A DNA stretch of 64,000 nt, taken from positions 192,001-256,000 of the forward strand of contig CBDCVK010000002.1 in assembly GCA_965223005.1 (NCBI GenBank), given 5' to 3'. The notes under the pieces were generated by a model. The model saw only the letters and a program-made list of their open reading frames with translations, did not search any database and was not told where the DNA came from. Source of the DNA: Terriglobia bacterium. GTDB taxonomy: Bacteria; Acidobacteriota; Terriglobia; JAJPHL01; JAPKYU01. Shown piece by piece: positions 26,164 to 63,375 of this stretch (the first letter of the stretch is position 1; every line of letters starts with the position of its first letter). Position numbers and translations under genes: made by a program.

Positions 26164-26190
26164 CACTTGTCCGGTTAGCGCGTTATAGTG
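26164..26190 (+). repeat. Dyad recombination-like site S1 (right half, 7-bp deletion)
   Basis: CACTTGTCCGGTTAGCGCGTTATA-GTG. Confidence 0.8.
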
Positions 26191-26270
26191 CGCTGCGTGG
26201 CAGCATCGGTAAACACTACTAGTGGGGGTAAGCGTCTTATACTCAGGGACTTGGACCGACGCGAAGCGGC

Positions 26271-26432
26271 CTATTGCACGGCGATGGTGACCGTGTTGCT
26301 CGGGACGCCGTTTTGAAGCAGCAGCAACGGCACAGCCGGCCCCGGTTCCACCTCGGCCGGGATTTCTACATTGACTTGGTACAGTCCCACAAACCCTGGC
26401 GCCAGCCCGGCAAAGTGCACCGTCGGCTGCGC
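26271..26432 (-). pseudogene. Orphan TIGR03437-type C-terminal tail
   Basis: QPTVHFAGLAPGFVGLYQVNVEIP...NGVPSNTVTIAVQ* with no credible 5' part. Confidence 0.8.
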
Positions 26433-26538
26433 TACATCAGTGAGCCAGGCTGCAGATTGTCGTACTTGAGCAGTCCTGCACCTCCTGGGCCCGGTTGGCG
26501 CGTTCCTAGAAAAGGTGCGATCTTGCTCGCGGGGACGA

Positions 26539-27084
26539 CTACGGAGACTCGGTGGGGCGGCTCCGGTGGAGCGCCTTCCGCTTCTCCCATTTGCGCTGCT
26601 CCCATGCCACGTAACAAATAGCGCCCCACAAAAACAGGACCCCAATGAACGCGAAGACGCACAGCGACCCGACGGTCCTGGATTGGAACAGAGCTGGGAG
26701 TTCCGCGCACTCAACCGCCCGGACGAGGACCGCGTAGAACAACGCCAAGTAAACACAGCTGGCTGTCGTTGTATACGCCACCAACACGGTCGGGCTCTTT
26801 GTCCACGACGGTCTCAGGATGAGCACCATCCCAAGGAAAGCCACCGCCCCCAGAAGGGTCGCAAGGATCCAGACGACGCTGAGCGCCGTATTGTCATATC
26901 GAGGCCCGGTGTAGTTGTGGGAATCCAGGATGGCCGTCCAGATTCCCACCGCGTGGAGCAAGGTCGAAAGCAGCAGCATCGCTGCGCCGAACGCCAGCTT
27001 CCGTTTCAAGCTCCAGTCGGGCGGAGGGCCTAGCGGAGGCCCGTCTCCGGCTAGGTTGCCCGCGGCCTCGGCATCCGTGATCAT
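26539..27084 (-). CDS. Hypothetical membrane protein (about 4 TM helices)
   Basis: Four hydrophobic segments in 181 aa. Confidence 0.55.
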   Translation of the reverse strand: MITDAEAAGNLAGDGPPLGPPPDWSLKRKLAFGAAMLLLSTLLHAVGIWTAILDSHNYTGPRYDNTALSVVWILATLLGAVAFLGMVLILRPSWTKSPTVLVAYTTTASCVYLALFYAVLVRAVECAELPALFQSRTVGSLCVFAFIGVLFLWGAICYVAWEQRKWEKRKALHRSRPTESP

Positions 27085-27340
27085 GGGCGGATTCCAACGC
27101 GTCGGCGGATCTGATCCCGCAGCGCCGTCAACTCAGGCTCGCGCATCCCGGCTCTCAGCTTCAGGCTGACGCCGTCGCCTGCGATCTCGGCCACCGCTTT
27201 CCCCTGGCACAGCAGAACCTCAGCCCCCGGAGTTTGTGGATGATCTGCTTTACGGAATTCTTCTTCCTGGGCACTCTGACCTCCTCCGCAACGGCCCAAC
27301 TCTAACATTCCAACTGGACCGATTTTAGGAGGTCAGATCA

Positions 27341-27817
27341 CTATCGGGCGACCACACGAAACACAACCAGGCCCGGCGCCGTGCCGTACAGGGCGTTGCC
27401 CTCACGGCTCCACTGTAAGTCTTCTCTTGAGGCTTCGAGCTGGGTGAGAAAGCCCTCTAGAGCTGGGTTCTGATCGGGACCGGGGCCGCGGGCACCCCCT
27501 GCGCCTGTCGTCCATGCCGACTCTTGGCCCGGTGGAACACGGACAAAGCCGACAACCTCCCATTCAGACGGACCAGGCACAAGTCCTCGGGAGTTATCGT
27601 GAAACCAGCCTTCGTATTCAATCTCCGAGGGTTCGGCGCGCAGAGGAATGAATCTCGAGAGTTGAACTTTTTGTTCCGTAAGGGATTTACCTTCCGAACT
27701 GAGCCTTTCAGGCGCACGTCCGGGCGGGCCGCCGCAACTCGAGAGAAACGCAATCGATGCCGTGGCAAGTGCAAGAGAAGACCAAGCTATCCGGGAGACT
27801 TCTTTGCAAGCTGTCAT
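27341..27817 (-). CDS. Hypothetical lipoprotein
   Basis: Hydrophobic leader ending FLSSC-GG (lipobox-like). Start uncertain. Confidence 0.5.
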   Translation of the reverse strand: MTACKEVSRIAWSSLALATASIAFLSSCGGPPGRAPERLSSEGKSLTEQKVQLSRFIPLRAEPSEIEYEGWFHDNSRGLVPGPSEWEVVGFVRVPPGQESAWTTGAGGARGPGPDQNPALEGFLTQLEASREDLQWSREGNALYGTAPGLVVFRVVAR

Positions 27818-28865: not shown

Positions 28866-28885
28866 AGGCTTTGGGGGTGAGATGG

Positions 28886-29298: not shown

Positions 29299-30081
29299 AT
29301 GATGAAACTGCTCGCGGTTGTCTCGGCAACGGTCATAGCAGCGCTGGGGGCCATTGCGCTTCCACCCTCCGAGGTTCCCACGGCCAAAGTGAACTCGGAA
29401 GACGGGCTCAAATACGTCTGGATTCCGCCCGGCAAATTCATGATGGGGTGCTCGGAGGGAGATAGGGGGTGCCTTCCTGATGAAAATCCAGCTCATGAAG
29501 TAACAATCAGCAAGGGCTTCTGGATGGGACAGACCGAAGTCACTGTGGGCGCGTACAAGCGATTTGCGAATGCCACGGAAAGAACGATGCCCAACGCCAC
29601 GGGTTGGAATCCCGATTGGCGCAACGAGCAAATGCCGATGACCAAGGCCACGTGGGGGGACGCGGACGCTTACTGCCGCTGGGCCGGCGGGCGATTGCCG
29701 ACCGAAGCAGAATGGGAATACGCGGCGCGCGCCGGGAGCACCGTAGCCGTCTACGGTCCCCTGGACGAGATCGCCTGGACCTGGGCCAAAGGCCGCCGTG
29801 GTCCAAGCGAAGTAGCAATGAAGCGACCGAACGATTTTGGGTTGTTCGACACGCTGGGAAACGAGTATGAGTGGGTGAATGACTGGTATGAGGAGGATTA
29901 CTTCTCCGATAGCCCCGCAACGGACCCGAGGGGCCCGCCGAGCGGAGTAACGCGAGTCGTGCGAGGTGGGGAGTGGGCCGGCATCGGGAAGTTCGCGCGA
30001 GTTTCTGCCCGCCGCAGCTGGTTTCCAGACAGCTCCGAATTCGGCGGCGGCTTTCGGTGTGCGCTCCAACCAGGTCCCTAG
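29299..30081 (+). CDS. Formylglycine-generating enzyme (SUMF1/FGE-sulfatase) domain protein
   Basis: IPPGKFMMG, DENPAHEV, RLPTEAEWEYAARAG, PNDFGLFDTLGN, VVRGG, GFRC. Confidence 0.93.
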   Translation: MMKLLAVVSATVIAALGAIALPPSEVPTAKVNSEDGLKYVWIPPGKFMMGCSEGDRGCLPDENPAHEVTISKGFWMGQTEVTVGAYKRFANATERTMPNATGWNPDWRNEQMPMTKATWGDADAYCRWAGGRLPTEAEWEYAARAGSTVAVYGPLDEIAWTWAKGRRGPSEVAMKRPNDFGLFDTLGNEYEWVNDWYEEDYFSDSPATDPRGPPSGVTRVVRGGEWAGIGKFARVSARRSWFPDSSEFGGGFRCALQPGP

Positions 30082-30299
30082 GGCCTTAAAGTTGACTGTC
30101 GATGATCTCATTCCGGTCCGGATCGACGACGAAGATCCCATCATTGGATTTCCCAAAGATCTTGTGAAATGGCTCTTGGCTTCTGCCCGGAGCCTCTCCA
30201 GTCCGTTCGCGCTGTTTCTTTAACGATTCGAGCGCGGATACTCTCTCGCGACGCCGGATAGGTCCCCACTAACGGGCTAGCGCTTATCAATCCCGGTTT

Positions 30300-30403
30300 C
30301 ACATGGCCGTATAGTCGGCTTACCGGACAAGTGCCTACCTTGAGGCAGCGTCACTGCGCGGTACGAGGGCACTTGTCCGGTTAGCGCGTTATACGTCCAA
30401 GTG
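30300..30403 (+). repeat. Paired dyad site S2 (104-bp imperfect palindrome)
   Basis: CACATGGCCGTATAGTCGGCTTACCGGACAAGTG-36 bp-CACTTGTCCGGTTAGCGCGTTATACGTCCAAGTG. Confidence 0.9.
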
Positions 30404-30698
30404 GCGCACCGCTGAGCGGGTGGGGGTATGAGCATTTCCGAGTACGCCGGAGACGACGGGATTTCAGGACCTGGCGAGGACCGCTCGGAGCCCCCAGAGA
30501 GAAGAACTGTGCTGGAAGGACTCAGTTGGAGGCCGATGGTTGTATATTTACGAGTGCCGGAGGGCCAAAAAACTAATTCCGGTTAAAATAACCCATTGGC
30601 GAGGAGACCTCCCGAGTGGGTGATCGCACGGGACGTCACACGAGCTATCCATCCGGGGCAACCGTTGACCGTACGCTCCCCCTTAAAGACATAACTTT

Positions 30699-31907
30699 AT
30701 GATTTCAAAGGCTGAATTCAGATTATCCAAGCTCCTCCTGCTTACGGTTGGCCATTTTACGGTGGACTTCTATGGCGGGTTTATTCCCGTGCTGGTGCCG
30801 GTGTTGCAGCGGGCCTTGGGTTTTACGCTTACCGAGGCGGCCATCCTGGTTTCGGCCTTTTCGCTTTCGGTCACATTCTCCCAGGCACTTTTTGGGGTGT
30901 TGTTCGACCGCTGGCGCAGTGTGCGCCTGGTGGCCTTCGCTCCCATGCTCGCCGCAGTCACACTGAGTTGTATCGGGATCATGCCTTCCTACATCAGTCT
31001 GATTTTCCTGGTCATCGCCGGCGGTCTGAGCATTGCCGCATTTCATCCCTACGGCGCATCCCTGGCGGCGATCGAAAGCGGGCCCCGGCACAGTGTCGGA
31101 ATGTCCATCTTCGTCACCGGCGGGGTGATGGGCGTGGCCGTGGGAGCCCTGGTGGCCGCGGCGCTGGTCGACTGGGGAGGATTGTCCGCGACGGTTTATG
31201 CCGTCGTTTTCGGATGTCTGGTTGCCTTCCTGATTCGCCGCAACATCAACGGAAGGCCCGTGCCTCAGGAGGGAAAATCTCAGGGGGCGGGAACCCTGCC
31301 AACGGGCTACGGATTACTGTTTGGCCTGGGAATTCTCTCCATGCTTCGCGCATTTGTAATCCTGGGCTTTCAGACCTTTGTGCCGCTCTACTTGACCGAA
31401 CTCGGCACCCCGCTCCCTACCGTGGGCCTGACCTTCTTTGTGTTCGGGATTGCGGGAGGAATCGGCGGCTTGACGGGCGGTACCTGGGCCGAGCGCATCG
31501 GCGAAAAGGGAGTCCTGTTTGCATCCTTCCTGATTCCCATCCCGCTCTTGCTCGGATATCTCCTTTTGGGGACTTCCGTTGCGGGCATCGCGTGCTTCGG
31601 ACTGGCGGGGTATTCCCTCTTCACCGGAGTGCCCATTCTGATCGCCATCAGCCAGCGCAGCTTTCCCCGGCGAGTGGGGACGATTTCGAGCTTCGTGATG
31701 GGCGTGAGCTGGGGGATGGCGGCAATCGGCATTACCCCGGCGGGAATGTTCGCCGAAAGATTCGGGCTTTACTCGACCCTTTGGGTTCTGGGGCTGACCG
31801 GTTTCGTGGGATTCCCGGTGGCGGTCTTGCTGTTTCGCAGGCAACCCGTGCCGGCGATTCCCCCCGCCCAGAACGAGGTCAAGGAAATCGACTGGGAAGC
31901 GACCTGA
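30699..31907 (+). CDS. MFS transporter (Fsr-like)
   Basis: About 12 TM helices; HFTVDFY, AAFHP, MSIFVTGG. Confidence 0.9.
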   Translation: MISKAEFRLSKLLLLTVGHFTVDFYGGFIPVLVPVLQRALGFTLTEAAILVSAFSLSVTFSQALFGVLFDRWRSVRLVAFAPMLAAVTLSCIGIMPSYISLIFLVIAGGLSIAAFHPYGASLAAIESGPRHSVGMSIFVTGGVMGVAVGALVAAALVDWGGLSATVYAVVFGCLVAFLIRRNINGRPVPQEGKSQGAGTLPTGYGLLFGLGILSMLRAFVILGFQTFVPLYLTELGTPLPTVGLTFFVFGIAGGIGGLTGGTWAERIGEKGVLFASFLIPIPLLLGYLLLGTSVAGIACFGLAGYSLFTGVPILIAISQRSFPRRVGTISSFVMGVSWGMAAIGITPAGMFAERFGLYSTLWVLGLTGFVGFPVAVLLFRRQPVPAIPPAQNEVKEIDWEAT

Positions 31908-32214
31908 TCTTTTCCCTTATTCCGCCAGGTAAATTCTTCTTGAAAGAAAAACCCAGGGCTGCGGATTTCCGATGGAAATCCAACCTTGCCTGGGATTCCC
32001 CATTGAGGTCGACACGAGCACGGGCTGTATCGGTAACCGCGTCTACACAGACCTCGGGGAAGACGAGCTTTACGTAGCGGATCCTGGGAATGACTTGGCC
32101 AGGGTTGCCGATGAGGTCAAAAACGATCGCGGCGGCTAACGCCAAGTTGTCGGAATACCACCGCGAACGGCGGAAGGCGCAGCGCCCTGAGGCTCCTTCT
32201 CTGACGTCGGCGGT

Positions 32215-32309
32215 CACTTGGACGTATAGTCGGCTATCCGGACAAGTGACCCTCTACGCCCGCCAGGGTAGTAAGTCAGTTTCCGATAAACGCGTTATAC
32301 GTCCAAGTG
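32215..32309 (+). repeat. Paired dyad site S3
   Basis: CACTTGGACGTATAGTCGGCTATCCGGACAAGTG...CAGTTTCCGATAAACGCGTTATACGTCCAAGTG. Confidence 0.9.
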
Positions 32310-32440
32310 GGCGGCGTGGCAGCATAGGCAAACAATAACCGACCACTTGACGCTGCTACGGAGCCTGACAGATTGACGAATCAATTCGTTGCCAGGTGCG
32401 GTATCATGGTCCCCATGCAGCCATGTTCACGAGAGGATTC

Positions 32441-33406
32441 ATGAATCGCAGAACTTTTGTGGGTAGCGCGCTGGCGAGCGTCGCCGCCCTCGGGACTTCC
32501 GCTCGGGCGAGCAAGCTCAAAGCGGGCGACATTCCGACCAGGGTCTTCGGCAAAACCGGCGAAAAGCTCACCATCGTCGGCCAGGCCGGCTCCCGTTTCC
32601 CCCTGATCTCGTTCGAGGAGGCCAAGCAAGTTACTCTGCGCGCCTACGAGTTGGGCATCAACTACTTCGATACCGCGCACGGCTATTGGGACGGCCGCTC
32701 GGAAGAAGTTTATGGGGCGGTCATGCCGCCGTTCCGCAAAGAAATCTTCATCACCACGAAGTCAAAAAAGCGCACGCGCAAAGAAGCCGAGGAAGAGCTG
32801 CACCTCTCGCTCAAGCGTCTCAAGACCGACTACGTGGATCTCTGGCAGATTCACTCGGTCAATAGCGACGAAGACTTGCAGAAGATCTTCGCTCCGGGCG
32901 GCGCCATCGAGGCGTTCGAGGAGGCGAAGAAGGCCGGCAAGTGCCGCTTTATCGGATTCACCGGCCACCACGATCCCGATGCGCACCTGGAGATGCTGCG
33001 GAGTTACAAGAACTTCGACACGATCTTGATGCCGCTCCACCCGGCCGACCCCTCGTACCTCAGCTTCGAGACCAAAGTCCTGCCCGAGTCGATCAAGCAG
33101 GGTCTGGGCATCCAGGCAATGAAGTGCACGGCGAATGCCAAGCTGTTGCAGACTATGAGCCTGAACGATTGTCTGGCCTACGTGCTGAGCCTGCCGATCC
33201 ACTGTGCGACTTTGGGCGCGACAACCGTTGGTCAGATCGAAGACGACGTGCGCTTTGCTCAGCGGTTCAAGCCCATCGGCGATACCCAGATGAGCGCGCT
33301 GCGCAAGCGCGCCGAGCCGATCGCCGGCCCGCATCTGGAAACCTGGAAGCGTAATATCAAGACTGCGGACTACCGGCCGCCGCGCCCCGTCTATCAGGGC
33401 GACTAG
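32441..33406 (+). CDS. Aldo/keto reductase with Tat signal peptide
   Basis: MNRRTF twin-arginine leader; GINYFDTAHGY, SLKRLKTDYVDLWQIH, GKCRFIGFTGH. Confidence 0.92.
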   Translation: MNRRTFVGSALASVAALGTSARASKLKAGDIPTRVFGKTGEKLTIVGQAGSRFPLISFEEAKQVTLRAYELGINYFDTAHGYWDGRSEEVYGAVMPPFRKEIFITTKSKKRTRKEAEEELHLSLKRLKTDYVDLWQIHSVNSDEDLQKIFAPGGAIEAFEEAKKAGKCRFIGFTGHHDPDAHLEMLRSYKNFDTILMPLHPADPSYLSFETKVLPESIKQGLGIQAMKCTANAKLLQTMSLNDCLAYVLSLPIHCATLGATTVGQIEDDVRFAQRFKPIGDTQMSALRKRAEPIAGPHLETWKRNIKTADYRPPRPVYQGD

Positions 33407-33677
33407 CGGCAGCTGCGGACCTGCGCGGGCTTGTTTGCGTGGATCGCTTTCGAATTGAGTCAGATCATGAAGCCGCATCCCAAAAGGGTGCGGCTTTTCG
33501 CTTCTGAGGATGAACAGAGAGCAGAAAGATCCGACCAGCAGGAATCAGCCCAGCTAGACAACCTGTTTGATCAGTTGGCTGTGCACCTGAGCCACAGTCG
33601 CGGCCGCCTGGGCGGGCAATTCTGGGAAATGCCGGATAGGTCGCCACTAGCGGGCTAGCGTTTATCAATCCCGGTTT

Positions 33678-33781
33678 CACTTGGACGTATAGTCGGCAAA
33701 TCGGACAAGTGCCTACCTTGGGGCAGCGTCACTGCGTGATACGAGGGCACTTGTCCGGTTAGCGCGTTATACGTCCAAGTG
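33678..33781 (+). repeat. Paired dyad site S4; flanks 33632-33836 nearly duplicate 30254-30458
   Basis: Same architecture and linker as S2. Confidence 0.9.
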
Positions 33782-33841
33782 GCGCACCGCTGAGCGGGTG
33801 GGGGTATGATCATTTCCGAGTGCGCCGTGACACGACCGGAA

Positions 33842-34033
33842 TCATCGAAACTGGCGATGCGGCTGGTTCACCCTGCGTGCCACCCACCGGCTGATCGCTC
33901 CGCATGCGGAGAAACTTGGCTTCCGGGTGCTCTGCCAGGGAGCTGATTCGGTTAATACTGCTGCCTTCGCGTGATCGAGATCTGGGAGCCGAAGGACTTT
34001 GGTGTTTTTCCAAGAATCGTTTAGAATCGGCAC
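33842..34033 (-). pseudogene. Remnant of tyrosine recombinase N-terminus (KVLRLPDLDHAKAAVL)
   Basis: Matches KLGLPDLDQAKAAVL in the ORF at 58934; similarity is lost after about 16 aa. Confidence 0.6.
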
Positions 34034-34062
34034 AGCAAGCTAGCATTCGGGGTAGGTATGCT

Positions 34063-37000
34063 ATGTTCATTCGTCCTTCGTGTCTTGTAATTCCGATTCT
34101 CTTTCTTGCGGCAACGGCTTCTTCGCCTGTGCCGGTTTCGGAATCGTCGCGTACCATTGATTTTCAGCGGGACGTTCGTCCCGTCCTCTCCGATAATTGT
34201 TTTCAGTGCCACGGCCCGGACAAGGGCACTCGCATGGCTGAGCTTCGGCTCGATACCCAGGATGGCGCCTTCGCCAAGCGGGCGAACGGAACAACGATCG
34301 TCCCAGGGGATCCGGAGGCAAGCCTGCTTTACAAGCGCATCACTCACGAGAACGAGAGGATGCGGATGCCGCCGGCTTATTCCAAGAAGGAACTGGCGAA
34401 AGAGCAGATTGGCGTACTACGGAGGTGGATCGAGGAGGGCGCTTCGTGGGACCAGCACTGGTCCTTCAAAGCGATCAAGCGGCCCAAACCTCCCGCAGTG
34501 AAGAACGAGGCCTGGGTCCGCAGCCCGCTCGACCGGTTTGTTCTCGCCCGGCTCCAGAAGGAAGGTCTTGCGCCTGCTCCCGAAGCCGACAAACGCACCC
34601 TAGCCCGCCGTGTGGCGCTGGATTTAACGGGATTGCCTCCCGACCACGGCACCCTCGAAAGCTTCTTGAGCGACACCTCGGAACAAGCTTATGAAAAACT
34701 GGTCGACCGGCTGCTAGACTCGAAGCACTGGGGCGAACACCGCGCCCGCTATTGGCTGGACGCAGCGCGTTACGGAGACACCCACGGTATTCACGTCGAC
34801 AACTATCGCGAGATGTGGCCCTACCGCGACTGGGTGATCCGGGCTTTCAACGACAACAAACCGTTCGACGAATTTACGGTCGAACAGATCGCCGGCGACT
34901 TGCTGCCCAACCCGACGCTCGATCAACTGGTTGCCACCGGTTTTCATCGCTGCAATATCACGACGAACGAAGGCGGTGTCATCCCTGAGGAATACGAAGC
35001 TGTCTACGCCAAGGACCGAGCCGATACTACGGGCACCGTCTTTCTCGGTCTTACGGTCGGGTGCGCCACTTGCCACGATCACAAGTTCGACCCGATTCGA
35101 CAGCGCGAGTTCTATTCCCTGACGGCGTTTTTTAGGAACACGACGCAGTATGTGATGGACGGCAATATATCGGATCCGCCGCCCATCCTGGTTGTCCCCA
35201 GCGACAAAGACCGCGGCCGCTGGCATGAGCTCCGCCGGGAAGCGGCGGAAACCGAAGCGAAGATCAAAAACCGCACCGCGTCGGTCGACGAAGCGTTCGC
35301 GGAATGGCTTGCGAGCAAGGAACATCGTTCCCTGCAGACCCCGCTCGAAGAGTCCGCGGAGCTGCTGACGCTGAACCTTGACGATGAACCCGCGATCGAC
35401 ATGGGCGGAAGGCGGAAGAAAATTGCACTTCATCAGGGAGCCGTGGTCGATGAAGGGCCGAACAAAAACCAGCCGGCGCTGCGGTTCGGGAAGGAATCGT
35501 GGGCGGAGCTTCCTCCCTTGAAGCTTGACAGTGACACACCCTTTTCTATTGCGATGTGGGTTTACCAACCCAAGGTCGTAGGGGCCTTCGTGGTTGCCGG
35601 TCAGTACGATCCCGACGACGATTCCCGCGGATGGTCGATTGGCGTCGACGCTCGGCAAGTCACCTTTAGAATGACCGGCGAAAGGCCGGCGGGGCAAGAA
35701 AATCCGTCCGAAGTCACCGTTGTGCCCATCATCACGAAGCGGATGCCCGCGGGTGTGTGGACCCACATTACGGTAACCCACGACGGCTCCGGCGAGCGGG
35801 CCGGCCTGCGTATCTACACGAACGGTGATGTCGTAGAGGAGCAGGGCAGCGAGTTTTTCACGAAGGTGGAGGGGAGTATCCAGACCAACCGGCCTCTCTA
35901 TTTGGGCAGAGGAGTCACGAAGGGCAGAGGCGACCGCGACGAGCCCGAAGTCCGCTACTTCTCGGGCGGGGGCATAGCGGATCTTCGAGTCTTTAGTCGC
36001 CCGATCACGGTCCAGGAGGCCAAGGTTGTTTCGTTGTGGTCCGTGCTCCAAAGCGCGCGGGATAAGGAACCTGAAGAACTAAGCTCCGACGAGCGGGAAG
36101 CGCTGCGTCTCTACTACCTCAGCGTCAAGGACCAAGATTACCGCGAGCTCGTGGCGCGCAAGCAAGAGATCGATCGGGAGTGGCGGGAGGTCCGGCGGCG
36201 CGGGGGTGTCACACACGTGATGCGGGAGATACCGGACAAGGAGCCCGAGGCTCACGTTCTCTACCGCGGCCTGTATGACCAACCTCGGGAGCGTGTTACG
36301 GCAAACACTCCCTCGGCGTTACATCCAATGCCTGCGTCGTGGCCGCGCAACCGCATGGGGCTGGCTAAGTGGTTGGTCGACGAGGCGAACCCGCTGACAA
36401 GCCGTGTGATCGTGAACCGTTACTGGCAGGAAGTCTTCGGTGCCGGCCTGGTAAAGACCAGCGACGATTTTGGCTCGCAAGGGGAGTCGCCGTCTCACCC
36501 TGAGTTGCTCGATTGGCTGGTAGTCGAGTTCCGCGAATCGGGCTGGGACATCAAGCAGTTCTTCCGCACGCTCGTGACGTCCTCCACGTACCGCCAGTCC
36601 GCCCAAACGACGGCGGAAAAGCTCGATAAGGACCCGGAGAATCGGCTGCTCTCGCGCGGGCTCAGCTTCCGCATGGACGCTGAAATGATCCGCGATTACG
36701 CCCTGGCGGCGAGCGGCCTGCTGGTCCGCAAGATCGGCGGCCCGAGTGTGAAGCCCTATCAACCGGAAGGAGTCTGGAAAAGGGTGGCAATCACCATGAG
36801 CAACACCAGCTCCTACAAACAAGACTCCGGCGCCAAACTCTATCGGCGCAGTCTTTATACCTTCTGGAAGCGCTCCGCGCCGCCAGCCTCCATGGAGGTT
36901 TTCAATGCGCCGACACGGGAGCACACCACGGTGCGCCGCGAGCGAACCAACACGCCGCTGCAAGCGCTCGTCACGATGAACGATACACAATTCGTCGAAG

Positions 37001-37296
37001 CGTCACGCTATCTCGCACAGAAAGCCATGCGCGAGGCCGGAGATGACTTCGACCGGCGGCTGGATTACGTGACGACCCGCCTTCTTGCACGTGACTTCAG
37101 TCAAAACGAACGCGCGGTTGCGAAGCGGTCCTACAACAAATTCATCGGTTTTTACGGTTCAAACGCCGCAGAGGCAAAGAAGCTTCTTGCTGCCGGCGAG
37201 TCACCGCCCGATGAGGCGCTGTCCGTGACGGAGTCTGCAGCGTGGACCTTTCTGGCGAGCCAGATAATGAATTTGGACGAGGTGTTAAACAAGTAG
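34063..37296 (+). CDS. DUF1549/DUF1553 (PSD1) protein with planctomycete cytochrome c and LamG-like domain
   Basis: DFQRDVRPVLSDNCFQCHG, WLDAARYGDT, CATCHDHKFDP, PSHPELLDWL, TNTPLQAL. Confidence 0.92.
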   Translation: MFIRPSCLVIPILFLAATASSPVPVSESSRTIDFQRDVRPVLSDNCFQCHGPDKGTRMAELRLDTQDGAFAKRANGTTIVPGDPEASLLYKRITHENERMRMPPAYSKKELAKEQIGVLRRWIEEGASWDQHWSFKAIKRPKPPAVKNEAWVRSPLDRFVLARLQKEGLAPAPEADKRTLARRVALDLTGLPPDHGTLESFLSDTSEQAYEKLVDRLLDSKHWGEHRARYWLDAARYGDTHGIHVDNYREMWPYRDWVIRAFNDNKPFDEFTVEQIAGDLLPNPTLDQLVATGFHRCNITTNEGGVIPEEYEAVYAKDRADTTGTVFLGLTVGCATCHDHKFDPIRQREFYSLTAFFRNTTQYVMDGNISDPPPILVVPSDKDRGRWHELRREAAETEAKIKNRTASVDEAFAEWLASKEHRSLQTPLEESAELLTLNLDDEPAIDMGGRRKKIALHQGAVVDEGPNKNQPALRFGKESWAELPPLKLDSDTPFSIAMWVYQPKVVGAFVVAGQYDPDDDSRGWSIGVDARQVTFRMTGERPAGQENPSEVTVVPIITKRMPAGVWTHITVTHDGSGERAGLRIYTNGDVVEEQGSEFFTKVEGSIQTNRPLYLGRGVTKGRGDRDEPEVRYFSGGGIADLRVFSRPITVQEAKVVSLWSVLQSARDKEPEELSSDEREALRLYYLSVKDQDYRELVARKQEIDREWREVRRRGGVTHVMREIPDKEPEAHVLYRGLYDQPRERVTANTPSALHPMPASWPRNRMGLAKWLVDEANPLTSRVIVNRYWQEVFGAGLVKTSDDFGSQGESPSHPELLDWLVVEFRESGWDIKQFFRTLVTSSTYRQSAQTTAEKLDKDPENRLLSRGLSFRMDAEMIRDYALAASGLLVRKIGGPSVKPYQPEGVWKRVAITMSNTSSYKQDSGAKLYRRSLYTFWKRSAPPASMEVFNAPTREHTTVRRERTNTPLQALVTMNDTQFVEASRYLAQKAMREAGDDFDRRLDYVTTRLLARDFSQNERAVAKRSYNKFIGFYGSNAAEAKKLLAAGESPPDEALSVTESAAWTFLASQIMNLDEVLNK

Positions 37297-37390
37297 AATC
37301 AGGGCGGCTGACCCGGCGCACGCCTGTCGTGTGCCCCATCCGGCTTCCGCGCCTGACGTTCGGCTTTACTCGCTCAGGGAGATTTTGAAA

Positions 37391-38857: not shown

Positions 38858-39513
38858 AGCACTTGGTTTGAGTTGCAAATTCGCGTTCGCATACTGCGCG
38901 ATTCTGCGGAAAGGTTAAGCTGCGTTCACGCGGCTTTGTCTTCACTAGGCCAGCCGTTTTACGGCTGGTATTGTTCCGAGTTGCCGCAAGCGGCAGAAAC
39001 TAACGAAGTCTGGTAGATGTCTCGCCGGCGTGGTCACCCTCAGGCGACCACATTGCCTTCCACGAAGACGTACTTGAATGTCGTCGAGAACTGGTTCGAA
39101 AAGTTCGGGGACCAGCAGGGTGGGGCGCAATAACAGCCCACATTCCTGTTGAATCCCTCTCCCACAGCAGACCCGGTTCGAGAGCGAGCAATCCACTCAT
39201 CTACAGGTCCATACGGTCGTCGAAGTCGCAAGATCCCGGTAAGTCGGCAAAGCGGACAAGTGGTCCGTCGGGTTCAGGTCCCCCGAAACGGGCACTCCTC
39301 AACGATTGACGCGCACTCTCCAGAAAACACGCCACTCCGGTCCCTTCTGTGCTTGTCTGGGCTTGGCCCAATCGGCTGCAAGGGCCAACAATACCGGACC
39401 GGATAGATTGCCCCTAACCCCCAGTTCTTTCCGGTCCGGCTGCCAACTCCCGAATAGTCGCCAACTAAGAAACTATCGCAGCGCTTTGCCGCTCCTCGTC
39501 TGACGTCGGCGGG

Positions 39514-39569
39514 CACTTGGACGTATAGTCGGCTATCCGGACAAGTGCCAACCTGGAGGCAGCGTCACT
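39514..39569 (+). repeat. Dyad site S5 (left half plus partial linker)
   Basis: CACTTGGACGTATAGTCGGCTATCCGGACAAGTGCC...GCAGCGTCACT; a further half copy at 39242-39262. Confidence 0.85.
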
Positions 39570-39770
39570 CTAATAGCTGAGAGCAGATAGGTCCCGCCTT
39601 GTCGCCGTCCGACAAGAGACTCGCCGCTCGCCACAGCATGTGACGACCTGCACCTTTGGGTGATTTCCGATTTCTGAGTTGTAGCGGGGGCTGGTACCAT
39701 AGCAGCTAGGAACTACGGCGTATCTGGCATTGGAAAATCAATGTCTCAAACAGACAAAGGAGGTACCGGC

Positions 39771-55610: not shown

Positions 55611-55655
55611 CTCCGGAACCAAAGGCCGCAGGTTCGAATCCTGCCGGGCGTACCA
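55611..55655 (+). repeat. Third copy of the tRNA-Arg(CCG) 3' half (att core)
   Basis: Identical to 18643-18687. Confidence 0.93.
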
Positions 55656-56665: not shown

Positions 56666-56716
56666 CACTTGGATGTATAACGCGCTTATCGGAAACTGAC
56701 CTACTACCCTGGCGGG
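56666..56716 (-). repeat. Dyad site S7 (inverted; S3-type right half plus linker)
   Basis: CACTTGGATGTATAACGCGCTTATCGGAAACTGAC...CCCTGGCGGG. Confidence 0.85.
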
Positions 56717-57676: not shown

Positions 57677-57715
57677 CACTTGGACGTATAACGCGCGGCT
57701 CTTCTGGAAATGACC
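57677..57715 (-). repeat. Dyad site S8 (inverted, degenerate second arm)
   Basis: CACTTGGACGTATAACGCGC; shares the GGCAGCAT.GGCAAAC flank with S1, S3 and S7. Confidence 0.8.
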
Positions 57716-58851: not shown

Positions 58852-58871
58852 CACTTGGCCATATAACGCCC
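58852..58871 (-). repeat. Half site S9, about 60 bp upstream of the recombinase start
   Basis: CACTTGGCCATATAACGCCC. Confidence 0.65.
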
Positions 58872-58933
58872 ATACCATCCTCGAACTCACCCGATTCCTA
58901 ATCTCAAGGCCAGCCGTCAGGAGGCGGCTGACC

Positions 58934-59881
58934 ATGAGAAGAAGATCACAAAGAGCTGGCAAGAAAGCAGCTCGACCGAAGGCGAAGCTTGGACTTCCGG
59001 ATCTGGATCAAGCCAAGGCAGCGGTGCTCTCTACACTACGCTCACCTGAGTCACAGCGCGGCTATCGGCACACCATCGACGAGTTCATTTGGTGGTACTG
59101 CTCGGAGCCCCGCCTGGTGCAGGCGCAAGGTACGGTGCAAGCCAACCCGACGGTGCCGGCCCTGTTTGCCGGCGGAGTAGTGAACGGGGCCAGCTTTGCT
59201 CCGGGCGAAGCGCTGGCGCCAGGCAGCATTGTGTCGGTGTTTGGGCTCAACTTGGCCAGCGGGTTGAATTTTGCTTCACAGGTGCCGCTAGAAACAACAC
59301 TGGGTGGTGCAACCATGAACATCGGAGGCGTGGAGGCACCCCTGTTCTTCACCAGCGACGGGCAGGTAAACGCGCAGATTCCGTTTGAGCTAGCCCCCAA
59401 CAGCCGGCCGCACGTGGTGGTACAGACGCGGCGCGATGGCAGCGGTCCGGAGGCAATCACGGTACCGGGGACCATCACGCTGGCCGGGGCGCGGCCAGGC
59501 ATCTTCACCACCAACCAGCAGGGGACCGGGCAGGGAGCAATCCTGGACGCGCAGGGGCAGCTGGTGGACGGCGCGGCGCCCGCTGCGGCGGGTGAAATTA
59601 TACAGGTGTTCTGCACCGGGCTGGGCGCCGTGAAGGAGCAGGTAGAGACGGGAGCCCCCGCGCCCTCGTTCAGCACCGTGCAACTGCCGGTGACGGTGAC
59701 CATCGGAGGGCTCGACGCCGCGATAGCCTACCAGGGGCTAGCGCCCGGCTTTGTGGGCCTCTACCAGGTGAACGCCGTCGTGCCCGCCGGCGTTGCGGCG
59801 GGCGGTGCGGTCCCGCTGGGCCTCACGCAGAACGGGATTGTGGCCAACCCGGGTCAGCCGGTCACCATCGCCGTCGAGTAG
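58934..59881 (+). CDS. Chimeric ORF: tyrosine recombinase N-terminus (about 60 aa) fused in frame to a TIGR03437-type domain
   Basis: KLGLPDLDQAKAAVLSTLRSPESQRGYRHTIDEFIWWYCSEPRL then VQAQGTV...VVNGASFA...GLAPGFVGLYQVN; RBS AGGAGG. Confidence 0.75.
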   Translation: MRRRSQRAGKKAARPKAKLGLPDLDQAKAAVLSTLRSPESQRGYRHTIDEFIWWYCSEPRLVQAQGTVQANPTVPALFAGGVVNGASFAPGEALAPGSIVSVFGLNLASGLNFASQVPLETTLGGATMNIGGVEAPLFFTSDGQVNAQIPFELAPNSRPHVVVQTRRDGSGPEAITVPGTITLAGARPGIFTTNQQGTGQGAILDAQGQLVDGAAPAAAGEIIQVFCTGLGAVKEQVETGAPAPSFSTVQLPVTVTIGGLDAAIAYQGLAPGFVGLYQVNAVVPAGVAAGGAVPLGLTQNGIVANPGQPVTIAVE

Positions 59882-60288
59882 CCTGCTTCGCCTCAAGATT
59901 CCCCGCGCGGGATAGTAGGGCGACTGGCCTACCGCACTGATCCGGTCCCAGTGGGAATTTCCGCTTGACGGAAATTGGGATTTGTCCTGCACGCTAGTTT
60001 GGATGCGGGAGCTACCCGGGGTCGTTCCTCCCTCTCCCCCCGGGTCTCCGCGCAGTCCCGCCTTCAGGGTGCCGCACCGACCTACCGATAGGTTCTTCTG
60101 AATCTCGGCGGCTACCCGGGAGCAGTCCGTCCCCCCTTCCCCTTGCCCCCTGTAGCTGTCTAGCTGAGCCTGGCCACTGAGGAGGCCGGATCGCCTCCTA
60201 GAATCGACAACACAGACGGGTGGACGGGTTTCTGAACTTTCCCTACCGGCTTCGGGTGGCAAGCACCAAGAACGAGTGATGGGGTTTG

Positions 60289-61224
60289 CTATTGGCAGAA
60301 CTTGAGCTGGACGGTCCCCATCTGGAGGATATCGTCGTTCCCCAAGACGACTGTCTCCTGATTTGCCATGCGCCGCCCGTTGATGACGGTGGCATTGGAA
60401 TCCTTGCTAGCCAGATTGACCAGCCGGAATTCACCGGCTTGCGCGGAGTAGACCAGGCGCGCCTGGCTCCGGATGACCGTGTTGGTCTTGTCCTTGATCC
60501 GGACTCCGTCGGTGACGTCCGGGCTTTCCCGACCGATTTCGACTTCGCCCATTCCGGATGGATCCGTTAAGTAGATCACCTCTGTTTCCTCTGTGCCGTT
60601 CCGCTCGTCCAGCACGATCAGCTTCGCCGGCAGAATCTTTGTGGTCCTGTACTCCGCTGGTTCCTCTGCCCGATCCTCCACCATGAGTGGCTTCGTCGGC
60701 AGAATCTTTCTGGTCTTGAATTCGGTGACATGCGAGCGGTCATCGACGCGGGGAGCATGACCGGCAAGGTGTGCAGCAGGAATAGGCGAAGGAGTTCTTA
60801 CGTAGCGGCGGTTTGGGACCGGAGAAGCTGGGGGTCTGCTTCCTCTCCATGCAATCACAAAGAGGATCAGCATCAAAGTCCCGGCAAGCGCCAGCCGTCT
60901 GCGCTTGTCCTGCTGTTTGCTGCCTGTGGATATGGGTTCGGTTTCCGCAGCCGCATGATGAATCTCACTAGATTCCGGATTCTTGATCGCCGTGCCAGTC
61001 ACGCTGATTGGTAATGGCTGGTTCGCAAAGCGGATTAGGGCGCTCCCTCCGTCTTTGAAATAGTCACGGGTCGCCTCGAAGCCGCGCTCTAACTTTTCGA
61101 TGGGGATAGCTGTCGGGGCATAGGGTCCGCTCGCTGACAGGCCTACGGCCGGTAAGCAAGCCAGTAGGGCAATAGCGCGGAGGATGCCTCTTCCACCAAC
61201 TCGTTCTTTGATCTTGTTTTCCAT
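60289..61224 (-). CDS. Membrane protein with C-terminal FHA domain
   Basis: IGRES, TVIRSQARL, NATVING...L..DDILQMG. Confidence 0.75.
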   Translation of the reverse strand: MENKIKERVGGRGILRAIALLACLPAVGLSASGPYAPTAIPIEKLERGFEATRDYFKDGGSALIRFANQPLPISVTGTAIKNPESSEIHHAAAETEPISTGSKQQDKRRRLALAGTLMLILFVIAWRGSRPPASPVPNRRYVRTPSPIPAAHLAGHAPRVDDRSHVTEFKTRKILPTKPLMVEDRAEEPAEYRTTKILPAKLIVLDERNGTEETEVIYLTDPSGMGEVEIGRESPDVTDGVRIKDKTNTVIRSQARLVYSAQAGEFRLVNLASKDSNATVINGRRMANQETVVLGNDDILQMGTVQLKFCQ

Positions 61225-61388
61225 AACAGCACCTAGTTAAGCGCAGCCGCCCCAAGCCTCCAATAGGCTAGTAGTTACATTTTGCCCGGTACTCGGTACT
61301 CTTGTACCAGCAGGGGCGCGCCCTACAGGTGGGAATCGGGGCTGCTAATACTTTCTCAAGCTGCCGTGATTCCCTGAAACGGCAAGAG

Positions 61389-62450
61389 TTAACTCGGAAT
61401 TGGCACATCGGTCCTTCCATGAAAATTCGCTCGAGCGGGGGCGCTTGCGCTTGGGGCCTCTACGGTCTCCGGCTCGGCCGGCCCGGTTGGCTTGTCGGCA
61501 AGAACCGCCTGCTCGGCACGATCCAAGAGCTGGCCGGGGGAGTCGCCAGGTTGATAGGCGGTCCACCCAGAAACAAAGCTGACTGGAATCTTCTCCGCAC
61601 GAAAGTCCACTTCCAGATCCGCCATGCGGGGAAGCGTGACCGGCACCTGCTCGGGTCTGCCTTCGGGGAACAACACCATGAACTCATCCTGGCCTGTGCG
61701 CGCGGCAAAATCCGAGTTTCGGATCGCTTTCTTGAGTTGTGCGCCAAAATGCTTCAGCACCAGATCGCCGGCCGAGCGTCCGTAGGAGTCGATGATCTGC
61801 GCGAAGTCCTTCAGATGCAGCGCCACCACGGTGAGTGAATTTTCCTCCCTCTGGGATCGGGCCAGCTCGGTAGATAGGTGCTCCTCGAGGAAGCTGCGGT
61901 TGTACAGTCCGGTGACGGGATCCAGCATCGCCAGCTGGTGAGAATCCTCGGTCCGGAATTTCAGGTTGAAGACCGAGTCAATCTGCTGGGACAGCAACAT
62001 CGAATCAACCTGCCGGGACAGCTCATGCCGGATTCGTCTGCTCACCAGCTGCTGGGCTACGGCATAGCCGCTGAAAAGCAGCACGATGGAAAACTGTGTC
62101 CAGAAGGGCGCTGAGGAGAGTGCAAGCACGGTCCCCATCAGCAGCAGCACCGCGAGGGCCGCTGACCAGACCCGCCAATCTCTCCGTTCCAGTTGCTGCA
62201 ACCTGTCTTGAATCGCCGACAGGCCAGCAATGGCATCCAGAGGAGACAAATGCTGATCCGACTCCGATGGCTCGCCTTCGGCCCCCTGGGGCCGGGGGGC
62301 AAACTGAGCGAAAGCCTCCTGTGGAAATGAGGCAGGGTTCGCAGGGGACACCACATCAGTAGTGACTAGGCTCATAGTAGCTCCTTCAACCAGACCGGCC
62401 TCGGTGGCCGGCAGGGTACTCAAGTTCGACATTGGGTTCGCATGGCTCAT
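61389..62450 (-). CDS. Membrane-anchored GGDEF-domain protein (degenerate GQDEF)
   Basis: DPVTGLYNR, YGRSAGDLVLK, RNSDFAARTGQDEF. Start inferred at ATG 62450. Confidence 0.85.
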   Translation of the reverse strand: MSHANPMSNLSTLPATEAGLVEGATMSLVTTDVVSPANPASFPQEAFAQFAPRPQGAEGEPSESDQHLSPLDAIAGLSAIQDRLQQLERRDWRVWSAALAVLLLMGTVLALSSAPFWTQFSIVLLFSGYAVAQQLVSRRIRHELSRQVDSMLLSQQIDSVFNLKFRTEDSHQLAMLDPVTGLYNRSFLEEHLSTELARSQREENSLTVVALHLKDFAQIIDSYGRSAGDLVLKHFGAQLKKAIRNSDFAARTGQDEFMVLFPEGRPEQVPVTLPRMADLEVDFRAEKIPVSFVSGWTAYQPGDSPGQLLDRAEQAVLADKPTGPAEPETVEAPSASAPARANFHGRTDVPIPS

Positions 62451-62793
62451 AACGTAAACCTCATTGGCGTAGATTTCAGTGCCATGGACTTGATCGCGCA
62501 CCTCACCGGGAGAATCCGCAGAAACTCCGGGAGGGGTCTGCGGGTCTTCTGTGCCGCAACCATCGCGCAAAACAGCGCCGCCATGGTCTGGGTCGTTTGA
62601 GTTCTTGTGCTGTCCATAACAGTGCCTAGTTAAGCGGAGCCGCAGCAAATGGCCAATAGCCCCACAGTTACATTTTGCTTGGTACTTTCGGACTAGCGGG
62701 CGCGCGCCCAGCAGGTGGGAATCGGGCCAAGCGAAGATTCCCCAAGTTATAGGCGATCACGCTCCACCACAGACGCACTTCAATTGCCCGGAT

Positions 62794-63120
62794 CTAGGGT
62801 TTCAGGAAAATGCCGAGCAGCTTGATGGCAACGCCCTTTTTGAGTGAGCCTTCGAGTTCCTGGACCCGTACGACTTCTGCATGCATGGGCCGTTCCATCG
62901 AGGGCTTTGATGGGTCGTAGGGGAATATAACCTCCATCTCCATGCCCGGCTTGTAATCGCCAAAAGCCTCAAAGAAGATTCCGTTGCGGGTCAGGTTCTT
63001 GACGGTCCCCACTTGCGAGGACTGGTAGGAACCCTTGAACTTGACCAGGATCTTGACCTCGTTGGTGACCCGATACCGTTGCCGCCGCTCGGGTCCCCCG
63101 TGTTTGGGCTTATCGGGCAT
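62794..63120 (-). CDS. PilZ domain protein
   Basis: ERRQRYR and NLTRNG motifs. Confidence 0.82.
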   Translation of the reverse strand: MPDKPKHGGPERRQRYRVTNEVKILVKFKGSYQSSQVGTVKNLTRNGIFFEAFGDYKPGMEMEVIFPYDPSKPSMERPMHAEVVRVQELEGSLKKGVAIKLLGIFLKP

Positions 63121-63341
63121 GGTCCTACACTAGCGAGGTGGGGCTATCTGCCATAATAGCAGCGCTTCACGCTTGGCGCGGCACAAAGGGGTCCGGACCT
63201 GGACATCACCACCGCGACAGGTGGAGGGGCCCAGGCGCGAGTTCGAGGGGCATCCTATGCAATCCTGGCTGGATCATAGGTAAACACTAGCCCGTTAGTG
63301 TGGACTATCGTCTTTGTGTGCTTCCCCGAAGGGAATCCAGG

Positions 63342-63375
63342 CACTTGTCCGGTATGCGCGTTATATGTCCAAGTG
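63342..63375 (+). repeat. Dyad site S10 (right half)
   Basis: CACTTGTCCGGTATGCGCGTTATATGTCCAAGTG; upstream GCTTCCCCGAAGG shared with S1. Confidence 0.85.

Follow-up and report, generated by a model that had tools for sequence, protein, structure and literature searches.

Paired dyad sites linked to a Xer-like recombinase family: a putative mobile-element array in tRNA-Arg islands

In attC arrays and CALINs, two inverted simple sites, each with arms around a short spacer, make up one palindromic site, and the arrays are co-oriented, contain unrelated cargo between the sites and involve a tyrosine recombinase. CALINs are, moreover, orphan arrays with no recombinase of their own. The pdif modules of Acinetobacter plasmids present unlike arms around a 6-bp central region and rely on a Xer-like recombinase, with gene modules being bounded by neighbouring sites of inverse orientation. 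In REPIN/RAYT systems and BIMEs, a gene lies between two inverted palindromic units, while inverted doublets that form hairpins of ~100 nt are dispersed and carry mosaic flanking motifs. Finally, engineered cassette exchange with heterospecific lox or FRT sites employs the same arms with incompatible spacers, placed in inverted orientation so that they bound a replaceable segment. These features recur in the site family considered here (the replaceable segment putatively so), which was examined starting from one stretch of 64,000 nucleotides (the window). The window contains an array of 34-bp dyads that are probably the two core sites of a mobile-element family built around a 316-aa Xer-like tyrosine recombinase, with the array itself being an orphan. 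In the literature searched, no published description of this site/recombinase system was found.

Dyad sites, composites and cargo

The initial annotation of the window described a 34-bp repeated dyad, gave ten start coordinates for it and placed the copies at the edges of gene blocks. The repeat is real. When up to 3 mismatches were allowed, 8 full matches were found in the window (30300+, 30370-, 32215+, 33678+, 33748-, 39514+, 49550+ and 63342-), as compared to none in 100 shuffles, and 4 partial copies are present in addition. Of the ten starts, six (30300, 32215, 33678, 39514, 49550 and 63342) correspond to full sites, while 26164, 56666, 57677 and 58852 are only partial or hybrid, consisting of one arm with the spacer or including a variant second arm. 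In each site, a 6-bp spacer separates the outer arm, CACTTGGACGTATA, from the inner arm (reverse complement CACTTGTCCGGWTA), the two arms being 14 bp long and unlike one another. As had been annotated, there are two spacer classes, A (GTCGGC) and B (ACGCGC or ACGCCC), and these always lie on opposite strands. The conserved unit extends 50-100 bp past the dyad on both sides, so that the repeat is bigger and more mosaic than the bare 34-bp site, and a UUCG-type hairpin is found after B sites. Our model does not need these flanks, which is a point against it, and they may contain accessory sites or serve another function.

The features of the window are as follows (coordinates, strand and description):

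18611-18687, + strand: tRNA-Arg(CCG), attachment site of the array-bearing islands
18693-19865, - strand: island integrase with a Phage_integrase domain, of a family different from the 316-aa recombinase
26164-26187, - strand: partial B-type site with inner arm, spacer and 4 nt of outer arm, next to a conserved B flank
30300-30333, + strand: A-type site with spacer GTCGGC, left half of composite 30300-30403
30370-30403, - strand: B-type site with spacer ACGCGC, right half of the same composite after a 36-bp linker
32215-32248, + strand: A-type site, left half of composite 32215-32309
32276-32309, - strand: degenerate B-type site, outer arm and spacer retained, inner arm a variant of the CAGTT/AACTG kind
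33678-33711, + strand: A-type site, left half of composite 33678-33781
33748-33781, - strand: B-type site, right half of the same composite
33923-33994, - strand: 24-codon remnant with weak resemblance (E 0.13) to residues 19-42 of the recombinase N-terminus
39514-39547, + strand: solo A-type site with left flank L2 and right flank R1
45810-45854, + strand: exact 45-nt copy of the tRNA-Arg 3' end, marking an island junction
49550-49583, + strand: A-type site with 3 mismatches, then a degenerate B half that extends to ~49640
55611-55655, + strand: another exact 45-nt copy of the tRNA-Arg 3' end, marking an island junction
56666-56699, + strand: hybrid B-type site with outer arm, ACGCGC and a variant inner arm
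57677-57696, + strand: truncated B-type site with outer arm and spacer
58852-58885, + strand: B-type site with spacer ACGCCC at the left end of a dead recombinase element, with the stump ATG 82 bp downstream
58934-59119, + strand: recombinase stump, first 62 codons of a 316-aa Xer-like tyrosine recombinase
63342-63375, - strand: B-type site with 3 mismatches, adjoining a block 97% identical in genome G001

The polarity of the hybrid site at 56666 is opposite to that of the upstream sites. In the pirin block of genome G003, a full variant site is found in place of the truncated site at 57677, which indicates that ~46 bp have been deleted in the window.

Inverted pairs forming palindromes had also been annotated. 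Full partners exist at 30370 and 33748, whereas the partners at ~32276-32309 and downstream of 49583 have degenerated. Three composites (30300-30403, 32215-32309 and 33678-33781) measure 95-104 bp, read A, linker and inverted B, and form long hairpins, with folding energies of -22.7 to -34.2 kcal/mol (z -5.0 to -8.8). In folds at -31 to -34 kcal/mol (z -5.8 to -8.8), a spacer region that is partly unpaired lies between two 14-bp helices, and the tip is variable. Such hairpins, as well as the co-orientation of the arrays, would suit an integron-like single-strand mechanism, in which the folded palindrome, with its spacer unpaired as in attC, would stand in for a single double-stranded core site and only composites would delimit cassettes; Stokes and colleagues are said to have described attC in 1997 as just such a pair of inverted 'simple sites'. 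We nonetheless regard this mechanism as improbable, as an IntI-type integrase is absent, the arms by inspection are unlike RYYYAAC/GTTRRRY cores, conserved flanks span the supposed crossover and many A and B halves lie kilobases apart, on contig C9 or to either side of the recombinase gene, which makes folding unlikely there. In the inspection of attC cores, only GTTATAC, in the inverted B site, came near, with the two-simple-site hairpin form being present. A search for IntI (NCBIfam TIGR02249) exceeded the 265-bit cut-off in 0 of the 4 genomes of the genus, with the linked recombinase scoring 40.4 bits.

Across the genome, 28 full sites were found in 3.24 Mb, as compared to 0 in a shuffled contig, and these are clustered in a few flexible regions or islands rather than evenly spread. 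The dyad, with the identical two spacers, is present in all 4 genomes of the genus that were surveyed, while outside the genus only 2 diverged matches were found, both in 1 of 37 other genomes searched. The sites are intergenic, with 77 of 81 (G000 and related loci) lying outside rough ORF calls. The genes around A sites are oriented ++ in 12 cases, -- in 15, -+ in 12 and +- in 12, and neither a bias towards gene 3' ends nor avoidance of divergent intergenic regions was seen at these sites.

These distributions should be considered in relation to REP/BIME-like intergenic repeats with a structural or regulatory role (terminators or nucleoid-protein sites, with no recombinase involved). Mosaic flanking modules in several combinations, the hairpin after B sites and the intergenic location all agree with such repeats, yet the explanation has next to no probability in our estimate, given the lack of a Y1 transposase, the even gene orientations, the clustering in flexible regions and the physical linkage to a recombinase gene across phyla described below. 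For REP/RAYT, no Y1_Tnp (PF01797) was found in the 96%-complete genome, with the control search being positive in 6 of 14 known genomes. The REP- or MITE-like genome-wide scatter that the initial annotation had named as grounds for rejecting its proposal is not what was found; the sites are clustered, linked to a recombinase and unaccompanied by a Y1 transposase. The data support the dyads being sites linked to a tyrosine recombinase, rather than REP elements or operators.

The annotated tRNA islands are real, with the 3' 45 nt of tRNA-Arg (18643-18687) being repeated exactly at the two junctions listed above. As for cargo, Pfam recovered MFS, aldo/keto reductase, PSCyt/PSD with DUF1501, carbonic anhydrase, KatG, YtxH and pirin, but assigned 0 families to 4 ORFs of the FGE block proposed at 26.5-30.2 kb. 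When compared to the integron cassette order (ORF plus attC, co-oriented), the sites are co-oriented, whereas the intervening genes occur on both strands, often several per interval. On contig C9, separated A and B halves alternate across 35 kb.

The linked Xer-like recombinase

The proposed link of the dyads to a tyrosine recombinase was borne out both within the window, where a gene stump and a B-type site are found together, and across phyla, where diverged A/B sites bracket a Xer-like gene. The ORF at 58934-59881 begins with 62 recombinase codons and is then fused in frame to unrelated repeated sequence. These 62 residues match 1721 proteins, the full-length forms of which are 316-aa PF00589 proteins with up to 97% identity over the stump. 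Relatives of the 316-aa recombinase were found at 547 loci in species-representative genomes, mostly of Acidobacteriota, and at 590 loci in metagenomes. The protein is 74-86% identical across phyla and often multi-copy in soil genomes, and many family members lie on contigs of 1.2-1.7 kb. It is a simple, two-domain protein that retains the catalytic R, K, HxxR, H and Y (alignment inspection). Its best NCBIfam matches are XerC/XerD, under the cut-off, and its best solved relative is XerD.

Among 80 genome loci, 25 have a B-type half-site upstream of the ATG on the gene strand (median distance 75 bp), while in 28 an A-type half-site is found on the opposite strand, ending at a median of 52 bp past the stop. 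Both were present in 18. The background for half-sites is 0.02 per interval searched. A profile search of 130 recombinase loci yielded B in 27, A in 32 and both in 18, and it should be noted that A/B sites are recognizable at only about one quarter of these loci. A generic 14-6-14 dyad test near the recombinase (at least 9/14) gave no enrichment (22/129 and 33/126, as compared to 100/512 in the control). The left end of the stump element aligns with the left ends of other loci over the outer arm, spacer and ribosome-site hairpin, while the right ends of recombinase elements have GCCGAC and the outer arm in common. One acidobacterial contig contains two intact recombinase genes, each between +A and -B, as well as three gene-less composites with cargo between them, in a layout like that of the window. 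Both the link between the sites and the recombinase family and the layout of the element are shown. The loss of the gene in the window is equally clear, only codons 1-62 being left. The B-type site before the stump ATG is present, and the right end is lost. No intact 316-aa recombinase was found in this genome (96% complete) or in 10 others of the order.

One may also ask whether the sites are dif-like mimics used by host XerC/XerD, as in pdif modules or Xer-dependent integrating elements, such that the 316-aa recombinase is dispensable. The arrangement of unlike arms around a 6-bp spacer is that of dif, the genome has two Xer-like genes (C6:110879-111394 and C2:179615-180175) and the sites persist in four species without the 316-aa recombinase. 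We give this only a very slim chance, however, as sites and the dedicated gene co-occur at fixed distances across phyla, and as conservation of the outer arm and spacer spans Planctomycete-type genomes and Acidobacteriota, groups that presumably have different dif sites.

According to the two-core-site explanation that we prefer, the autonomous form of the element has a B site on one side of the recombinase gene and an inverted A site on the other, with both outer arms pointing outward. As the gene is bracketed in this manner elsewhere, the 95-104-bp palindromes (A, linker and inverted B) can be considered gene-less versions of the element. In islands, such units or their separated halves are arranged in one polarity, with cargo genes between. 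As the recombinase is reduced to a 62-codon stump in this genome, the array is considered an orphan, being either a relic or dependent on a recombinase provided in trans. The orphan sites are highly conserved although no intact recombinase was found in the genome, which counts against this explanation.

Polarity and exchange at the core

A polarity rule is evident in the data. Adjacent non-composite pairs up to 25 kb apart share the same polarity in 54 of 58 cases in the genus, and extra sites in recombinase loci are concordant in 28 of 28. Polarity is constant over tens of kb and shows no preference relative to gene direction. In addition, the flanks on the two sides of the A core assort freely, with all four combinations of left modules L1/L2 and right modules R1/R2 being found (11, 4, 8 and 4 among 53 A sites). 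At one orthologous A site, G000 and G001 are near-identical through the flank, outer arm and spacer and unrelated past the inner arm. An A-to-B unit with 2.2 kb of cargo is common to two species at 94.7%, with unrelated surrounding flanks, and a sigma-70 block lies between two composites in G001 and between cargo-filled A...B intervals in G000.

Ends of shared blocks fall within 150 bp of a full site in 7 of 113 cases (3.8 expected, p 0.09) and within 400 bp in 21 of 113 (9.8 expected). Synteny breaks are thus enriched ~2-fold near sites, with most breaks lying elsewhere; that of the pirin block, for example, is inside the 3' end of the pirin gene. In relatives, neither the aldo/keto reductase gene nor a 1.0-kb DUF1501-gene stretch common at 97% has a site within the fetched 14-15 kb. 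No circular or recombinant junctions were seen in the public contigs, which are too short to show any. The mobile gene modules proposed in the initial annotation are partly supported, by clustering in flexible islands, single polarity and free flank assortment, while most breaks lie away from sites.

As the two spacers differ, A would be expected to recombine with A only and B with B only. If two co-oriented A sites (or two B sites) recombined, the intervening genes would be excised or inserted as a circle, whereas an A-with-A event paired with a B-with-B event between two DNA molecules would exchange the intervening segment. Either route would preserve polarity and A/B alternation and shuffle flanks at the core. 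Flank assortment, the one clean junction and the ~2-fold break enrichment lend circumstantial support to cassette movement at the spacer.

The enrichment being so modest, an IS-like selfish element with miniature derivatives (the ~100-bp palindromes), inserting whole and with the genes between merely incidental, should also be considered. The REPIN/RAYT layout of gene-less palindromes and a gene bracketed by inverted sites, the intergenic location, the cargo genes found in relatives without sites and the short contigs typical of multi-copy repeats all point in this direction. Of IS/MITE features, inverted ends are present, while the enzyme is a site-specific recombinase rather than a DDE or HUH transposase. 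Random insertion would not, however, predict the concordant polarities, the alternation of separated halves on C9 or the free assortment of flanks. Furthermore, it is established that excision by a tyrosine recombinase is not possible when the sites on either side of a segment are inverted and heterospecific. We consider such an element unlikely, albeit less so than the other alternatives above.

A bolder form of the preferred explanation is a cross-phylum gene-shuffling system with two heterospecific inverted sites, in which A-with-A and B-with-B events excise, insert and swap island blocks and the recombinase gene itself is exchangeable. We propose this only tentatively, as a possibility that is less than even. 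It would represent a natural counterpart to recombinase-mediated cassette exchange, and the integron idea would have arisen a second time, independently.

Relation to described systems

If true, such a system would provide Planctomycete-type bacteria, Acidobacteriota and other soil and sediment phyla with dedicated assembly and reshuffling of accessory genes in islands, independent of integrons, transposases and phage-type integration. It would account for the strong conservation and multi-copy state of the 316-aa 'XerD-like integrase', render cargo-module boundaries definable for annotators and offer genome engineering a compact recombinase with two naturally heterospecific sites. Even the minimal reading, a selfish element with miniatures, would be a tyrosine-recombinase counterpart of REPIN/RAYT, of which no description was found in the literature searched.

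Each described system, nonetheless, differs from the present one. Unlike in integrons, there is no IntI-type integrase, the 14-bp arms depart from the RYYYAAC/GTTRRRY cores (by inspection), the recombinase gene is itself located between the halves of one site, and these are frequently separated by kilobases, both kinds of interval containing cargo, with cargo genes on both strands. Unlike in pdif modules, the element carries its own dedicated recombinase instead of using host XerC/D, the sites lie in chromosomal islands of environmental bacteria, and there are two fixed spacer classes with fixed A/B pairing and arms of 14 bp, not 11 bp. As opposed to REPIN/RAYT, the enzyme is a tyrosine recombinase and not an HUH Y1 transposase, and the copies number tens rather than hundreds, are clustered in islands and follow a strict common polarity. 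Finally, lox/FRT cassette exchange is man-made, whereas here exchange is suggested by the layout and the shuffled flanks.

Structure and distribution of the sites

The initial annotation had placed a 34-bp dyad at ten positions of the window, as boundaries of a cassette array. Six of these are full sites, while the other four (26164, 56666, 57677 and 58852) are only partial or hybrid. With up to 3 mismatches allowed, the dyad pattern matched 8 places of the window, as compared to none in 100 shuffles. In each site, a 6-bp spacer separates an outer arm (CACTTGGACGTATA) from an inner arm that is the reverse complement of CACTTGTCCGGWTA, and the spacers are of two classes, GTCGGC (A) and ACGCGC (B). 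In three palindromic composites, an A site is joined to an inverted B site by a linker of 36-47 bp.

Composites (A site plus inverted B site) in the window
30300-30403, palindromic composite
32215-32309, palindromic composite
33678-33781, palindromic composite

The conserved repeat unit exceeds 34 bp and is mosaic. A sites are flanked by one of about three left modules and by one of two main right modules, and B sites carry flanks of their own, a UUCG-type hairpin among them. A and B sites alike are bordered on both sides by a ~32-nt motif (GATAGG...TAGCGTTTACC; e.g., window 30253-30299 and 33631-33677), which might be an accessory binding site. Some acidobacterial loci have a related stretch external to the B-type site (locus L112, ~3870-3900). 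In a variant dyad with CAGTT...AACTG arms, compensatory change on both arms preserves the symmetry. Just right of the first composite is a 133-bp repeat (window 30450-30582), with many 88-95%-identical copies in the three other genomes of the genus, G001, G002 and G003.

Variant CAGTT...AACTG dyads with a GTCGGC spacer, each after the same left module, on contig C10 of the source genome (G000)
G000:C10:249991-250080, variant dyad
G000:C10:255196-255290, variant dyad
G000:C10:600754-600840, variant dyad
G000:C10:901862-901950, variant dyad

The source genome (3.24 Mb in 10 contigs, with the window at G000:C2:192001-256000) holds 28 full sites, as compared to none in one shuffled contig. They cluster in the window and its neighbourhood, at 136-140 kb of C2, at 78-113 kb of C9 (9 sites) and at 1570-1577 kb of C10, with a few further sites standing singly; a genome-wide scatter of the REP type was not seen. 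Short repeats generally concentrate in the same regions. A REP/RAYT system was rejected, as a search for the Y1 transposase (PF01797) found none. By rough ORF calls, 77 of 81 sites are intergenic, and the sites show no preference for gene ends, position or gene direction, which argues against terminators or operators, and this reading was rejected as well. Each of the four genomes in the genus contains the site, with the two spacers unchanged (26, 20, 5 and 36 strand-matches). Outside the genus, two diverged copies were found in one genome of another family, and the site was absent from the remaining 36 genomes searched.

As the initial annotation had suggested, the array lies inside tRNA islands. 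The 3' 45 nt of tRNA-Arg(CCG) are repeated exactly in three direct copies, which thus delimit two tandem integrated islands of 27 kb and 9.8 kb. Integrase and primase-polymerase genes lie alongside, and an integrase is kept in the first island only. The proposed cargo was mostly confirmed by Pfam, with the exception of the 'FGE' block, which found no such support. An FHA-domain and GGDEF gene pair (window 60266-62723) has several paralogous copies, of 80-96% identity, in G001 and G003.

Copies of the tRNA-Arg(CCG) 3' end in the window
18643-18687, 3' 45 nt, direct order
45810-45854, 3' 45 nt, direct order
55611-55655, 3' 45 nt, direct order

Polarity of the sites and their pairing with a recombinase gene

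A sites are invariably on the strand opposite to B sites, and every composite is ordered A, linker, inverted B. For polarity, we took the strand on which A lies, or the one opposite to B. By this definition, concordance was found for 54 of 58 pairs of non-composite neighbours within 25 kb of each other, among 91 sites of G000 and 22 regions of G001-G003, noting that these genomes are related and the pairs are thus not fully independent. On C9 of G000, for example, nine sites alternate as -B and +A across 35 kb. The polarity of site clusters switches several times within 1 Mb of contig C1 of G003, such that replication is unlikely to set it.

The window ORF at 58934-59881 is chimeric, with residues 1-62 corresponding to a recombinase N-terminus with a 'PDLD' motif (the stump) and the remainder to unrelated repeated sequence. 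The 3' part (window 59536-59881) recurs about 10 times in the genome and resembles the C-terminal domain found in a family of secreted proteins. The stump is matched by 1721 database proteins, of which the full-length forms are 316-aa PF00589 recombinases with up to 97% identity over the stump; many of these relatives are carried by contigs of 1.2-1.7 kb. The family is Xer-like. Its catalytic residues are in place by inspection and its closest solved-structure relative is XerD; XerC and XerD models score ~100-110 bits, which falls well short of the cut-off of either. Species-representative genomes encode relatives at 547 places, the best 80 of which (74-84% identity) are almost all from Acidobacteriota, with single records from Acidimicrobiia, Methylomirabilota, Binatia and Eisenbacteria. 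Metagenomes add 590 places, and seven plasmids of cultured Acidobacteriota and Deinococcus also carry relatives. The best plasmid relative, on pACIX905 of Granulicella tundricola (64% identity), is annotated only as 'tyrosine-type recombinase/integrase', and A/B-type sites were not seen flanking its gene.

At 80 genome loci of the recombinase, a B-type half-site was found on the gene strand, at a median of 75 bp upstream of the ATG, in 25 cases, and an A-type half-site on the opposite strand, ending at a median of 52 bp past the stop, in 28, with both present in 18; the background was 0.02 per window. A profile search of 130 loci yielded 27 B, 32 A and 18 with both. At the remaining loci, the ends are diverged or unrecognised, and a generic 14-6-14 dyad test around recombinase genes showed no enrichment over controls. 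The link between recombinase and sites is thus firm for one subfamily. The stump in the window has a B-type site 82 bp upstream of its ATG and a left end that aligns with acidobacterial and metagenomic left ends across outer arm, spacer and ribosome-binding-site hairpin; right ends at recombinase loci and A sites of the window have GCCGAC and the outer arm in common. Across all 130 loci, each of 28 additional sites matched the polarity of the gene-flanking pair, which confirms the rule for genomes unrelated to G000. A 28-kb stretch of one acidobacterial genome contains 12 half-sites of a single polarity, two recombinase genes, each between +A and -B, and three gene-less composites, with cargo in between, and a second contig presents the mirror-image layout.

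Within the genus, tblastn searches with the stump for the 'PDLD' recombinase, the second of them very noisy, returned only the stump itself and a 24-aa fragment. Relatives of the stump were not found in G001-G003 or G008, nor was the full-length recombinase found in 11 genomes of the order, and the window array is therefore an orphan. It would be either a relic or an array acted on in trans, whether by host Xer proteins or by a recombinase copy that lies beyond these assemblies. G000 encodes twelve tyrosine recombinases, none recurrent beside sites; among protein families, only IS transposases and one family of large proteins occur repeatedly near them. An integron was rejected, the IntI-type integrase model TIGR02249 scoring below its family cut-off in all four genus genomes.

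Possible movement of cargo at the sites

Several observations speak for a transfer of cargo at the sites. Gene blocks of the window are scattered in G001-G003 at 94-99% identity, as compared to 85-97% for the upstream syntenic core, and A sites show free combination of left with right modules. Following a sigma-70 gene, an orthologous A site has matching sequence in G000 and G001 across the flank, the outer arm (a distinctive variant) and the spacer, and the two genomes are unrelated past the inner arm. G000 and G003 share, in unrelated surroundings, a unit that runs from A to B and holds 2.2 kb of cargo. A 36-bp linker of the window corresponds to 1.28 kb of A-to-B sequence in G002, and the sigma-70 block stands between two composites in G001 where G000 has filled intervals. 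However, other cases count against cargo movement: the MFS block in G001 has one side without a site, the aldo/keto reductase gene and a 1.0-kb DUF1501 gene stretch (shared at 97%) occur in relatives without sites, and the pirin block terminates within its gene. The modest enrichment of shared single-copy block ends near full sites also counts against it, being weak within 150 bp (7 of 113 ends, as compared to 3.8 expected) and about 2-fold within 400 bp (21 of 113, as compared to 9.8 expected). Parts of 29800-39700 occur in 24 public runs; the four examined are short contigs stopping at repeats, with joints inside repeats and sides of ~20 nt.

Several further features were also recorded. At G000:C9:90938-92641, the sole cargo between a B and an A site is a gene for a sigma-70 family protein of full length, with regions 1.2, 2, 3 and 4. 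Another A site (G000:C10:114346-114695) lies 106 bp from the truncation point of an island integrase, which is intact in G001 (339 aa) and reduced to a 96-aa C-terminal fragment in G000. IS elements of the rve, DDE_Tnp_1 and Mutator families are 98-99.9% identical among G000, G001 and G003. Core genes reach only 85-97%, and the clear difference suggests that these elements were exchanged recently between species.

IS elements near-identical across species
G000:C2:56003-57162, IS element
G000:C10:804871-806019, IS element, 4 copies
G000:C10:1612322-1613551, IS element
1.44-kb IS element, ~12 copies

Possible mechanism and relation to known systems

We observe sites that are paired with a tyrosine recombinase gene, obey a polarity rule and have shuffled flanks. 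As tyrosine recombinases need matching spacers, A and B should be heterospecific. A pair of A sites in the same orientation, or such a pair of B sites, would then excise or take up a circle, and paired A-with-A and B-with-B events would exchange the intervening segment. Both types of event would preserve polarity and A/B alternation, and the slot between A and inverted B could be occupied or vacated by the recombinase gene itself. The hairpin form of the composites may also permit an attC-like single-strand route; the three in the window are predicted to fold at -22.7 to -34.2 kcal/mol (z -5.0 to -8.8), unlike single sites, which fold weakly. A phage-lambda-like reading, with outer arms as the host attB and inner arms as the attP of an element, was rejected after a search of four genomes for outer-6-outer and inner-6-inner arrangements. 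The matches were ordinary outer-6-inner sites at exactly the 2-3 mismatches that separate the arms, with one odd exception (G003:C2:1087058).

A full-text literature search, covering main texts, found no description of the recombinase-site element. Many near-identical 'XerD-type phage integrase' genes are reported from Solibacter in PMC3469429, and subgroups of simple tyrosine recombinases (simple-YR) are described in PMC8138268, where 'Acidobacter' and 'Planctomyc' are absent from the main text and the present group might already be included in the supplementary subfamily tables. G003 contains, twice, three adjacent tyrosine recombinase ORFs of 334, 540 and 430 aa (G003:C2:2040471-2043144 and 2879452-2882125), which look like the 'recombinase in trio' elements covered by PMC3414803. 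We class the window system with recombinase-based mobile elements and cassette arrays, and, in a bolder reading based on exchange between sites with matching spacers, it would be a natural cassette-exchange system.
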